DNA from: an uncultured Clostridia bacterium
GTDB lineage: Bacteria > Bacillota > Clostridia > Peptostreptococcales > Anaerovoracaceae
Reading direction: 5' to 3'
Assembly (NCBI GenBank): GCA_963558075.1
Contig: CAUWFN010000001.1
Span: 7,000 to 70,999 of the forward strand
Length of the DNA: 64,000 nucleotides
Shown one piece after another: positions 51,523 through 53,804 of this stretch. Position numbers and translations under genes: made by a program. The notes beneath the pieces are model-generated. The model made no database searches. It saw only the letters and a list, made by a program, of their open reading frames with translations, and was not told where the DNA came from. How positions within the stretch are numbered: position 1 is the stretch's first letter; the number at the start of each line of letters is the position of its first letter.

Positions 51523-51538
51523 TGCAAAATGCGTGCCA
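51523..51538 (-). promoter_or_regulatory. Sigma54 (-24/-12) promoter for kal
   Basis: Minus strand reads TGGCACGCATTTTGCA, a perfect TGGCAC-N5-TTGCA, about 85 nt upstream of the kal ATG. Confidence 0.8.
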
Positions 51539-51608
51539 ATGGTTTATCATTGAAATTACGTGAAAAGTGAACCGATATATGTTCAAATGATTAAGGAGTG
51601 AACTGAAA

Positions 51609-53681
51609 ATGACACAGAAATATGGCGTAAGCAGGGTTCTTGAACCCAAGCACGTGCTTCCGACATCTGCTTGGAGGCTGGACAATGCTAGAGGAATATT
51701 TCCTCACGAAATACGCGTATCCATAAAGAGAATACATATAGAGCGAACAAGTTTCAAGGAAATCTGCCTAGAGGCAAACAACAATGAGCAGAGAATAAGG
51801 CGGAAAATCATGGACATAGTAATAAGAAGAGGAAAACTTCATAATCCTGTAACTGATACTGGTGGGTTGTTTTATGGGGAAGTAGCCGAAATTGGGTCAG
51901 AATATAAAAACTACAAAGGCTTCAGACCGGGAGACCAGGTTATATGTAATGCATCCATGGCCTCGGTACCTGCGTATATAGATAAAGTTCTTTCTATAGA
52001 TATGGCTTATGGACAGGTTGATGTTGAAGGATATGCTGTTTTATACGACGAAGTGCCTTTGATAAGAAAACCGGAAAATCTTCCGATTAATCTTCTTCTT
52101 TTTACCTTTGATGAGTCGGGTACGCTATTTAGAATAAGTAGCAGCGCTGTAGGAAAGAGAAAGTTCCTTATAGTAGGAAACAATCTTTTGTCAAATCTGC
52201 TCTTTGGCTGTGCAATAAGAAAGGTTGCAAGTGAGGATGCAGAGGTTGTCTGCCTTCTAGATAAAAAGTCGGAGGAGGTAGTGTGCGGCGAGAGCATAGA
52301 TGAGCTGAAAGAGAAAGTATTTACGAGCGTTCATTACCTTGACATACTCAAGCCTCTCGAGTGCTTAGATGAGATACAGGGTGATTATCTATTTGATCTT
52401 TCTGTAAACTGCGCTGATATTCCGGGAGCTGAAACTATTAACATTCTTGCAACAAAGAGTGGCGGCACGGTTGTCTTTGCTAATCTTATAAATAACTACA
52501 ATATTTCATTATATATAACGGAAGCTATTTCAAGGCAGCTTGATATAAGATGTGCAGATGGATATCTTGAGGCTTACGATCAGTTCGACATTGAAATAGT
52601 AAAGGAAATGGCGCCTTACATAGAACGTGCAACAGAAGCGAAGACTGTAATAACAGAAGAAAACGTTTACTCTGCAGGTCTACAGGCAAAGCTCGCGGAA
52701 CTTTCTGGGAGCACGGCTTTGTTCGAAGATTTTATATGCGAAAGCCACGCGATGCTAAACGTTCTTAGCGAAATCATGACCGTATCAAAGTATGACTGCA
52801 ACGTTTTGATAACTGGGGAAACAGGTGTTGGAAAAGAAAAGGTGGCAAATTTGATTCACAAAAATAGCAACAGAAAGATGCAGCCATTTATCAAAGTCAA
52901 TTGTGCATCGGTTTCTCCAAGCCTAATTGAGTCTGAGTTTTTTGGATATGAGGATGGTTCGTTTACGGGAGCAAAGTCAGGAGGCAAGAAGGGGTATTTT
53001 GAGCTTGCCGATAACGGAGCACTGTTTCTCGATGAGATTGGGGAGCTTCAGCTGGATATGCAGGCAAAGCTTCTTCGCGTAATACAGGACGGCGAATTTT
53101 ATAGAGTTGGCGGCACAGTTCCTATCAAAACAAATGTAAGAATAATTTCTGCAACGAACAGGGAACTTGAAGAATCTATTACAGAAGGGGTTTTTAGACG
53201 TGACTTATACTACAGACTAAATGTAGTGCGTATCAAAGTCCCGCCTCTGCGAGAGAGAAACAGCGATATACCGGCTCTGGTAAAACACTTTCTGTGGAAA
53301 TACAGTAAAAAATTTGATGTTCAGAGAACCTGCGATGAAGATGCTGTTGAATATCTGCGTCAGTGCAGCTGGCCGGGAAATATAAGGGAATTAGAAAATG
53401 TGGTGCAGAGGCTTATTATTTCATCAAAGGGTTCAAGCATCACCCTTATAGATGTAATGAAAGAACTTCATTCGGAAGTCTTTGATGGAACGTCAATGCT
53501 AAATGATGATTCAGAACTGGAACAAACTGAGGAACTTAGCCTTGATGTCATGGTTTCTAACTTCGAAAGGAACATTATAAAGCACGCATGCGAAAAATAC
53601 GGCTCCACACGAAAGGCGGCTAAAGCCATTGGAATTAGCCAGACACAGCTTGTTAGAAAAAAGAAAAAATATGAGATATAG
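51609..53681 (+). CDS. Sigma54-dependent enhancer-binding protein with Kdd-like N-terminal sensor domain
   Basis: aa 1-350 align with the two Kdd proteins. AAA+ domain has GETGVGKE, GSFTGA (GAFTGA variant) and ELENVV. C-terminal Fis-type HTH is STRKAAKAIGISQTQLVRK. Confidence 0.85.
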   Translation: MTQKYGVSRVLEPKHVLPTSAWRLDNARGIFPHEIRVSIKRIHIERTSFKEICLEANNNEQRIRRKIMDIVIRRGKLHNPVTDTGGLFYGEVAEIGSEYKNYKGFRPGDQVICNASMASVPAYIDKVLSIDMAYGQVDVEGYAVLYDEVPLIRKPENLPINLLLFTFDESGTLFRISSSAVGKRKFLIVGNNLLSNLLFGCAIRKVASEDAEVVCLLDKKSEEVVCGESIDELKEKVFTSVHYLDILKPLECLDEIQGDYLFDLSVNCADIPGAETINILATKSGGTVVFANLINNYNISLYITEAISRQLDIRCADGYLEAYDQFDIEIVKEMAPYIERATEAKTVITEENVYSAGLQAKLAELSGSTALFEDFICESHAMLNVLSEIMTVSKYDCNVLITGETGVGKEKVANLIHKNSNRKMQPFIKVNCASVSPSLIESEFFGYEDGSFTGAKSGGKKGYFELADNGALFLDEIGELQLDMQAKLLRVIQDGEFYRVGGTVPIKTNVRIISATNRELEESITEGVFRRDLYYRLNVVRIKVPPLRERNSDIPALVKHFLWKYSKKFDVQRTCDEDAVEYLRQCSWPGNIRELENVVQRLIISSKGSSITLIDVMKELHSEVFDGTSMLNDDSELEQTEELSLDVMVSNFERNIIKHACEKYGSTRKAAKAIGISQTQLVRKKKKYEI

Positions 53682-53756
53682 TCAAATTTGACCCAAAAAC
53701 GGCTCAAAAGGAACACCTATGAGCAGGTATTGGAGCATTTTGGGAGCACGCAGAAA

Positions 53757-53788
53757 ATAAAACCGCTGAAATCAGCGGTTTTTTATTT
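53757..53788 (+). terminator. Intrinsic terminator after the regulator gene
   Basis: AAAACCGCTGA / TCAGCGGTTTT perfect stem followed by a T-run. It abuts the sigma54 promoter. Confidence 0.8.
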
Positions 53789-53804
53789 TGGCACGGCTCT
53801 TGCT
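53789..53804 (+). promoter_or_regulatory. Sigma54 (-24/-12) promoter for the first kdd copy
   Basis: TGGCACGGCTCTTGCT, i.e. TGGCAC-N5-TTGCT, 69 nt upstream of ATG 53873. Confidence 0.8.

Follow-up and report, generated by a model that had tools for sequence, protein, structure and literature searches.

The window analysed here (64,000 nucleotides of an uncultured Clostridia bacterium of the family Anaerovoracaceae; contig CAUWFN010000001.1, positions 7,000 to 70,999) carries a lysine-fermentation locus in which the gene for a sigma-54 activator, or enhancer-binding protein (EBP), lies between kal and the first of two kdd genes. We propose that this locus is a single regulon of the one EBP, wired to both sigma-54 and sigma-70-type promoters, and assign this reading a probability of roughly 70%. 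Canonical -24/-12 promoters face kal and kdd1 on either side of the regulator gene, and copies of a single palindromic operator stand at fixed distances from the kal -24/-12 promoter and from a sigma-70-type promoter ahead of kdd2 and the kam genes. The genes and sigma-54 elements are as follows (window positions; all transcription start sites, TSSs, are predicted):

51044-51436, minus strand: kal, 3-aminobutyryl-CoA ammonia-lyase, 130 amino acids (aa); NF052388, 192.6 bits (cut-off 160)
51538-51523, minus strand: sigma-54 promoter of kal, TGGCACGCATTTTGCA; predicted TSS ~51512; 86 nt 5' of the kal ATG (51436)
51609-53681, plus strand: EBP gene, 690 aa, assigned by profile and motif evidence
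53759-53782, plus strand: terminator hairpin of the regulator gene, -15.2 kcal/mol, z -4.7; abuts the kdd1 -24 element
53789-53804, plus strand: sigma-54 promoter of kdd1, TGGCACGGCTCTTGCT; predicted TSS ~53815; 68 nt 5' of the kdd1 ATG (53873)
53873-54910, plus strand: kdd1, 3,5-diaminohexanoate dehydrogenase copy 1, 345 aa; NF052381, 269.5 bits; PDB 7DL3, E 7.6e-118
55190-56221, plus strand: kdd2, 77% identity to kdd1
55190-62832, plus strand: kdd2-kamA-kamB-kamC-kamD-kamE, a putative operon whose internal spacers have neither operator nor -24/-12 element

Re-reading of the sequence places both 16-mers at exactly the coordinates given in an initial annotation of this DNA. Each scores 11/11 against TGGCAC-N5-TTGCW, with a GG/GC spacing of 10 bp. 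The exact string TGGCAC-N5-TTGC occurs three times in the 64 kb where 0.10 would be expected (30-fold), and none of 100 shuffles reaches three. The third copy, at 40757-40771 on the plus strand, lies inside the thiW open reading frame (ORF) on the coding strand, where it encodes LGTLLAF, and is probably a chance match. As had been described, the kdd1 element directly follows the regulator's terminator, beginning just past the T-run of the hairpin; an equivalent hairpin is also present in orthologues.

We compared the window with 80 orthologous loci from named genomes, retrieved with an alignment of 15 homologues (261 loci were tblastn-confirmed). They come mostly from Anaerovoracaceae (Emergencia, Ihubacter, Aminipila, Aminicella, Hornefia, Sinanaerobacter, [Eubacterium] infirmum, nodatum and minutum). 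Nearly all 80 share the gene order kal(-)/EBP(+)/kdd(+)...kamA-C; two kdd genes are found in 27, and the others have one, usually of the kdd2 type. When a match of at least 10/11 plus both GG and GC is demanded, a -24/-12 element is present in the kal spacer of 48/76 loci and in the first-kdd spacer of 50/73. Across these orthologues the N5 is free to vary and the GG and GC elements are fixed. At the same threshold there are none in the spacers between the two kdd genes (0/27), between kdd and kamA (0/60) or between kamA and kamB (0/35). Where the regulator retains the GAFTGA motif, every kdd1 promoter typed is sigma-54-type (25/25). On this sequence evidence, the two sigma-54 promoters are very probably functional and belong to this regulator.

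The initial annotation had also recorded a TGAAC-N8-GTTCA inverted repeat upstream of the kal promoter as a weak candidate activator site. Its position (51568-51585) stands but its grading does not, since the palindrome is conserved in 80 loci, and two strong copies 3' of kdd1, at 54986-55007 and 55019-55040, had been overlooked. A position weight matrix (PWM) trained on 134 orthologous sites from the kal|EBP and EBP|kdd spacers has the consensus YGAACC-(g)AWWT(c)-GGTTCR, an 18-bp palindrome TGAACC-N6-GGTTCA. This 6-N6-6 arrangement is the geometry of the TyrR box and matches the TyrR-type HTH_50 domain of the regulator. In the source genome (1.75 Mb, 87 contigs) just three sites score 20 or more, all of them at the lysine locus, and the next best scores 18.4. 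The operators and the elements that follow them are:

51566-51587: operator O-kal, core GAAC-N8-GTTC at 51569-51584; PWM 24.7
53687-53708: decayed operator remnant, TTTGACCCAAAAACGGCTCAAA; PWM 7.1; orthologues have one or two intact copies at the same place
54986-55007: PWM window of operator O1, embedded in a hairpin at 54979-55014; PWM 26.5, the best in the genome
55019-55040: operator O2; PWM 24.7; centre 54.5 bp 5' of the kdd2 -35 and ~-90 from the predicted TSS
55041-55058, plus strand: T-rich block after O2, CTTGTTATTTTTTTGTTA; gaTTGTTATTTTTTTAATAAT in kdd2-type spacers
55084-55112, plus strand: sigma-70-type promoter of kdd2-kamA-E, TAGACA-17-TATAAT, 11/12; predicted TSS ~55119

All loci share a block 5' of the kal -24 that contains TGAAC-N8-GTTCA, and most orthologues have one or two palindrome copies 5' of the first-kdd promoter. 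In the window no matching copy lies 5' of the kdd1 promoter, as had been reported: the best there is the decayed site at 53687, with a score of 7.1, where real sites reach 20 or more. Upstream of the kdd1 sigma-54 promoter no operator is intact, and the nearest intact ones lie 1.2 kb downstream of it. Across the 80 loci, PWM matches of 18 or more number 64 in kal|EBP spacers, 78 in EBP|kdd spacers, 35 in kdd1|kdd2 spacers and 1 in coding DNA. The 35 matches between the kdd genes constitute independent support, because those spacers were outside the PWM training. The GAAC-N8-GTTC core alone was discarded as a specific marker (32 copies in the genome vs ~22 expected); specificity needs the PWM with its CCGA/TCGG flanks. 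We conclude that the palindrome is, in all likelihood, the operator of this regulator.

The geometry ahead of kdd2 points to a second promoter class in the same regulon. From the operator centre to the first base of the -35, the distance is 54.5-55.5 bp in 40/42 sigma-70-type kdd promoters; in the remaining two it is 86.5 bp, which is one operator repeat further. Twenty-four spacers with the 54.5-55.5 bp distance come from GAFTGA-containing genomes (window included), and the same distance is seen in genomes whose regulator lacks GAFTGA. At sigma-54-type kdd promoters the operator centre is mostly 60-152 bp from the -24. The rigid spacing at the sigma-70-type promoters points to an activator that contacts RNA polymerase; a looping enhancer needs no such rigidity. 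In the window, palindromic boxes occupy, at the sequence level, a fixed position 5' of a sigma-70-type promoter (O2, 54.5 bp). Every two-kdd locus repeats one order after the last operator: T-rich gaTTGTTATTTTTTTAATAAT, ~25 variable bases, T[AG]GACA-17-TATAAT, a small hairpin in the 5' untranslated region (5'UTR) and a ribosome-binding site. The hexamer pair T[AG]GACA-17-TATAAT (with an 18-nt spacer in L013) is present in all 19 kdd1>kdd2 spacers typed from GAFTGA-containing loci.

These observations change how the two parts of the locus are to be read. The initial annotation divided it into a sigma-54, activator-dependent part (kal, kdd1) and a sigma-70 part (kdd2, kamA-E, atoDA). The promoter classes are correct: the spacers upstream of kdd2, kamA, kamB and atoD contain no gene-facing -24/-12 candidate, even a weak one, which bears out the reported absence before kdd2/kamA and atoD, and the -35/-10-type hexamers reported there are found as TAGACA-17-TATAAT and TTGATA-17-TATAAT, both 11/12. 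The restriction of activator dependence to the sigma-54 part is not supported: the two best operators precede the kdd2 sigma-70 promoter at a fixed distance. Equating the sigma-70 part with a regulator-independent part is thus probably wrong, to judge from this arrangement. We also considered GGGGTTTGCTCTTGAT 5' of kdd2 as a decayed copy of the kdd1 -24/-12 element. Its GG and TTGA have the right spacing, but no orthologue supports it, and we regard it as a resemblance only.

The two operators 3' of kdd1 differ at the RNA level. O1 lies within a 15-bp hairpin (-22.9 kcal/mol, z -9.2) able to terminate kdd1, and a strong hairpin after kdd1 fits a monocistronic kdd1 unit. O2 does not fold as RNA (z 0.01); its conservation is therefore at the DNA level, and an RNA-level explanation for it was dropped. 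The repeated AATCGGTTCGCT could be read as the arms of alternative terminators; comparison across the loci favours a pair of operators instead, of which the distal copy also serves as a terminator stem. Further downstream, the predicted kdd2 5'UTR contains a small hairpin, CGTGC-GTAAAA-GCACG (window 55131-55146), and orthologues have TTATGC-N4/5-GCATAA in the same place, so that this leader hairpin is likely conserved.

Regulator sequence and promoter class vary together. In the 19 loci without a -24/-12 element in either spacer, GAFTGA has been lost in 19/19 and replaced by unrelated lineage-specific sequence. All 61 loci with a -24/-12 element keep GAFTGA or GSFTGA, as does the window. On the maximum-likelihood tree, GAFTGA loss requires six changes by parsimony, at least three of which are forced by well-supported branches. 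The Walker B and arginine-finger region is invariant in GAFTGA-containing members and degenerate or missing in many GAFTGA-less ones. Emergencia timonensis and Ihubacter are cultivable two-kdd relatives of the GAFTGA-containing kind, and Aminicella lysinilytica is an example with an atypical regulator. The GAFTGA-less loci keep their operators, paired with sigma-70 promoters at 54.5-55.5 bp. Loss of rpoN was considered as the cause of the missing -24/-12 elements in one clade and ruled out, since rpoN scores above cut-off in 24/24 genomes tested, 14 of them GAFTGA-less. The retention of rpoN indicates that the change in GAFTGA and promoters is specific to this regulator. The presence of rpoN in the source genome, which the initial annotation had left to be confirmed, is established by an intact 484-aa frame (TIGR02395, 474 bits vs a cut-off of 277). 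The distribution over the tree suggests an order from an all-sigma-54 state, seen in 31 loci that fall within one half of the tree, through a mixed state (the window and its relatives) to a repeated full switch with GAFTGA loss. One clade (L040, L042, L045-L047, L057) has a lone kdd1 3' of the regulator; this kdd1 has a sigma-54 promoter and is not followed by kamA, and the kal|EBP spacer contains two operators. The kdd1-type paralogue may serve a function separate from that of the kam operon.

The kal|EBP spacer is densely packed. Besides the sigma-54 promoter and O-kal it contains two sigma-70-type promoters:

51515-51487, minus strand: sigma-70-type kal promoter, TTTACA-17-TATAAT, 11/12; -35 beginning 7 nt past the -12 element; predicted TSS ~51480
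51522-51550, plus strand: putative sigma-70 promoter of the regulator gene, TTGCAA-17-TATCAT, 9/12; predicted TSS ~51557

From the operator to TGGCAC the distance is 38.5 +/- 1 bp in 32/32 loci, which places O-kal at about -65 of the kal sigma-54 promoter. The near-consensus sigma-70 promoter just downstream of the kal -12 does not agree with the earlier view that kal is driven by sigma-54 only. In many orthologues this promoter lies 59.5-61.5 bp from the operator centre, and it is the sole kal promoter left in GAFTGA-less genomes. We therefore read kal as probably transcribed from tandem sigma-54 and sigma-70 promoters, an assignment made from promoter matches. On the other strand, the kal -12 element and the putative -35 of the regulator gene have a palindromic TTGCAA in common. 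TTGCAA-17-TATCAT recurs in 21 loci, and TTGCAA stays where TGGCAC has been lost, presumably because it is part of the regulator's sigma-70 promoter. An operator-anchored logo of the kal spacer, built without selection for promoter matches, shows TGGCAC in fixed register in GAFTGA-containing genomes and almost no information there in GAFTGA-less ones, with TTTGCAA in both. O-kal falls at ~+12 to +28 of the regulator's predicted transcript, which suggests autorepression.

Four other explanations have to be weighed against the single-regulon reading. The 16-mers could be chance matches without promoter function, as the third exact match, intragenic and probably meaningless, might suggest. Only 0.10 are expected per window; both elements lie in gene-facing spacers flanking the EBP gene, are conserved in register across ~50 genomes and are lost exactly where GAFTGA is lost, and we consider chance extremely improbable. 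The model of the initial annotation, in which the activator governs only the kal and kdd1 sigma-54 promoters and kdd2-kamA-E and atoDA are independent of it, agrees with the sigma-70 hexamers and the lack of upstream -24/-12 elements at kdd2, kamA and atoD, and sigma-70 RNA polymerase is not an expected target of typical GAFTGA EBPs. It leaves unaccounted for the position of the genome's two best operators directly 5' of the kdd2 sigma-70 promoter, with a -35 distance that is invariant in 40/42. The module of operator and sigma-70 promoter also stands before a single kdd-kam operon in five GAFTGA-containing loci without kdd1 (L016, L030, L032, L037, L041) and in all GAFTGA-less loci. We judge that model improbable.

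A comparably low probability attaches to the operators between kdd1 and kdd2 being a downstream enhancer for the kdd1 sigma-54 promoter, with O1 doubling as a terminator and the proximity to the kdd2 promoter incidental. NtrC enhancers are known to act over distances of 1-3 kb, whether upstream or downstream, kdd1 in the window lacks an intact operator 5' of it, and O1 sits in a -22.9 kcal/mol hairpin. A looping enhancer, however, needs no rigid 54.5-55.5 bp to a -35, many two-kdd loci have operators upstream of kdd1 as well as between the kdd genes, and the arrangement persists in loci without any sigma-54 promoter. It is also conceivable, though unlikely, that the regulator is an activator only at the sigma-54 promoters and a repressor or anti-activator at the sigma-70 promoters, for example with a ligand-free form looping O1/O2 to O-kal. 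NtrC is known to repress glnAp1 and activate glnAp2, O-kal is downstream of the regulator's own predicted start, and FleQ both represses and activates sigma-70 promoters (PMC6158489). Operators at -90 and -123 are nevertheless outside the polymerase footprint, and contact activation typically shows a helical register that is fixed relative to the -35; moreover, in GAFTGA-less orthologues the sigma-70 mode is the only one left to control a catabolic pathway, for which induction would be expected.

Several points weigh against the single-regulon reading itself. The PWM is in part circular for the kal|EBP and EBP|kdd spacers, from which it was trained. O-kal at ~-65 is unusually close for a looping enhancer, and sigma-70 promoters are not where a GAFTGA-containing EBP usually acts. 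The sigma-70 hexamers were identified only by their match to the consensus, the conservation of O1 may partly stem from its terminator role, and the operators between kdd1 and kdd2 could serve the kdd1 sigma-54 promoter from downstream, as set out above. On balance we still favour control of the kdd2-kam sigma-70 promoter by this regulator, with activation likelier than repression, as the operator geometry suggests.

In the single-regulon model, an EBP whose sensor is a degenerate Kdd copy would bind the TyrR-box-like TGAACC-N6-GGTTCA. Genes kal and kdd1 would be under sigma-54, with the kal operator fixed at ~-65. Having lost its proximal operators, kdd1 would depend on distant sites, either O1/O2 at 1.2 kb on its downstream side or O-kal at 2.2 kb on its upstream side. 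It is known that enhancers tolerate distances of this size. The kdd2-kamABCDE sigma-70-type promoter, with operators at ~-90 and ~-123, would be served by a TyrR-like or class-I-like contact with RNA polymerase. The sigma-70 promoter of the regulator would overlap the kal -24/-12 on the opposite strand, and O-kal at ~+20 would mediate autorepression. With their plain sigma-70 promoters and no operator, atoDA and kce would be outside the regulon. The likely signal would be 3,5-diaminohexanoate, the substrate of Kdd, or an intermediate close to it in the pathway. Low-level transcription of kamA-E from the sigma-70 promoter would convert lysine into this inducer, whereupon the regulator would raise the expression of kdd1, kal and probably kdd2-kam. 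More tentatively, at somewhat less than even odds, we suggest that a typical GAFTGA EBP works here in a dual mode from an identical operator, as a sigma-54 remodeller (kal, kdd1) and a TyrR-like sigma-70 contact activator (kdd2-kamA-E), and that this Anaerovoracaceae regulator family preserves each stage of a stepwise sigma-54-to-sigma-70 rewiring whose final step was taken at least three times independently with rpoN kept.

The regulator has the AAA+ module and TyrR-type HTH_50 (PF00158, 226.8 bits; PF25601; PF18024) and the motifs GETGVGKE, LFLDEI, GSFTGA and RRDLYYR. It thus carries the features of an EBP, namely Walker A and B, GAFTGA, an arginine finger and a helix-turn-helix (HTH). It retains GSFTGA and so does not belong with the atypical EBPs, in which GAFTGA is absent or degenerate; 19/80 orthologues do. 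Domain searches identified no PAS domain in the regulator. Its sensor (residues 1-335) is homologous to the whole of Kdd, with 29% identity over 330 residues (E 7e-42). The Rossmann loop is degenerate: the dinucleotide-binding GGGGKSG of Kdd is GNNLLSN in the regulator and invariant across the regulator family, and KLHNPVTDTGG is kept in the sensor (KHKNPWTGSGG in Kdd). The invariant GNNLLSN and the retained KLHNPVTDTGG indicate that the sensor is maintained as a pseudo-enzyme, rather than being a fusion in the course of decay. For 3,5-diaminohexanoate dehydrogenase itself, structures are available in the PDB (7DL0, 7DL1, 7DL3, 7DL7).

Parts of this arrangement have precedents. KamR of Bacillus thuringiensis HD73, as described in PMC4428206, which cites Zhang et al. 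2014, is an EBP encoded beside lysine-catabolic genes that activates the -12/-24 promoter of kamA, which sigma-K also drives. Like KamR, the window regulator is an EBP encoded beside lysine-catabolic genes with a typical -12/-24 promoter. Unlike KamR, which has a PAS sensor and kamA as its target, it has a Kdd-fold pseudo-enzyme sensor, a TyrR-type HTH and kal and kdd1 as sigma-54 targets; with no -24/-12 element in the kamA spacer and no PAS domain, it does not qualify as a KamR orthologue. The SoxR layout of B. thuringiensis places the activator gene between two sigma-54 target promoters (PMC4428206). The window shares this bracketing by two -24/-12 promoters, one divergent and one downstream, and differs in that its operator is additionally attached to a sigma-70 promoter of the same cluster.

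Atypical EBPs that use sigma-70 include TyrR (E. coli), PhhR, HupR, HsfA, NtrX and VpsR (PMC6158489). The 19 GAFTGA-less orthologues fit the TyrR class, having no sigma-54 contact loop, relaxed ATPase motifs, 6-N6-6 boxes 5' of sigma-70 promoters and a TyrR-type HTH. In contrast, GSFTGA, Walker A/B and the arginine-finger region are all present in the window regulator, whose locus has sigma-54 promoters. Unlike in the TyrR-class examples, the atypical state arose here repeatedly within one orthologous family that still holds typical members. FleQ of Pseudomonas aeruginosa, a typical EBP, is reported to regulate promoters of the sigma-54 as well as the sigma-70 class (PMC6158489). Like FleQ, the window regulator is a GAFTGA-containing EBP with binding sites tied to both promoter classes, in our case as read from DNA. 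FleQ responds to c-di-GMP, has FleN as its partner and governs flagellar and biofilm genes, whereas in the window both classes occur in one small catabolic locus with an identical operator.

Sigma-54 regulons of Clostridiales comprise 39 EBP groups; sigma-54 and EBPs control amino-acid fermentation, and EBP genes adjoin their targets (PMC6615313). Lysine, kamA and diaminohexanoate are absent from the main text of that paper. Our literature search returned neither a paper that connects sigma-54 in Clostridia with lysine fermentation or 3,5-diaminohexanoate dehydrogenase, nor one that reports an EBP family with a Kdd sensor. It has been proposed that regulation by sigma-54 and by sigma-70 is connected in evolution through atypical EBPs, TyrR and VpsR among them (PMC6158489). 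The known atypical EBPs are isolated end-states; in the present family one regulator-operator pair occurs with sigma-54 promoters, sigma-70 promoters or both, depending on the locus. GAFTGA loss tracks promoter class perfectly in 80 genomes, which makes it possible to test in what order the events occurred, which residues each mode requires and whether a typical EBP can already activate sigma-70 polymerase. The proposed scheme would give the lysine-to-butyrate pathway of gut and oral Anaerovoracaceae its first regulatory model and offers a candidate small-molecule sensor derived from a pathway enzyme.

The gene names of the initial annotation (kal, EBP, kdd1, kdd2, kamA-E, atoD) were all recovered by profile and ORF analysis. 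We take kal to be monocistronic because the neighbouring downstream gene is convergent. The remaining features of the locus are:

56335-62832, plus strand: kamA, kamB, kamC, kamD and kamE
62928-62956, plus strand: sigma-70-type atoDA promoter, TTGATA-17-TATAAT with TG, 11/12; no operator
63062-63787: atoD; atoA is next, past the window end

The lysine-fermentation gene set of Kreimeyer is complete: kamA, kamB-E, two kdd genes and kal are in the window and kce is elsewhere in the genome. The kce gene is unlinked (contig C34:10605-11492, minus strand) and follows a rapZ-like gene. An extended -10 (TGGTATAAT) is the only promoter element upstream of it, where both an operator and a -24/-12 are lacking, and kce is therefore placed outside the regulon. 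A 277-aa ORF 3' of atoA was considered as kce and ruled out; it is an RpiR-family regulator. The atoDA promoter is preceded by a terminator-like hairpin at ~62850-62876. Between this hairpin and atoD, a palindrome ACCGTA-N5-TACGGT (62908-62925) abuts the atoD -35; it could be an operator for a different regulator, perhaps the RpiR-family gene after atoA. An Rfam scan of 50900-56400 returned no riboswitch or known RNA, its sole match being a sub-threshold small RNA at 50989-51049.

Elsewhere in the source genome, contig C30:20065-20242 (minus strand) holds three exact TGGCAC-N5-TTGC copies and one near copy in tandem, ~85-95 nt apart. Each of these elements runs on as TTGCGCCCGCA; the surrounding DNA is ORF-poor, and there is no EBP gene on contig C30. 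The genome encodes nine true EBPs, and three EBPs have Kdd-fold sensors. One paralogue of the window regulator, on contig C77 (~2199-3191, minus strand), has 40% identity to it over the full length. The other, on contig C18 (L095:5517-7670, minus strand), has 33% identity in the sensor and is divergent from an NhaC-family transporter gene (L095:8097-9602). The transporter gene has a canonical sigma-54 promoter, TGGCATAAAATTTGCT, at L095:8012-8027, 69 nt 5' of its ATG. Two TACCATAA-N-GG(G/T)TCA repeats 5' of this promoter (spacer L095:7745-8027) resemble a variant of the operator.

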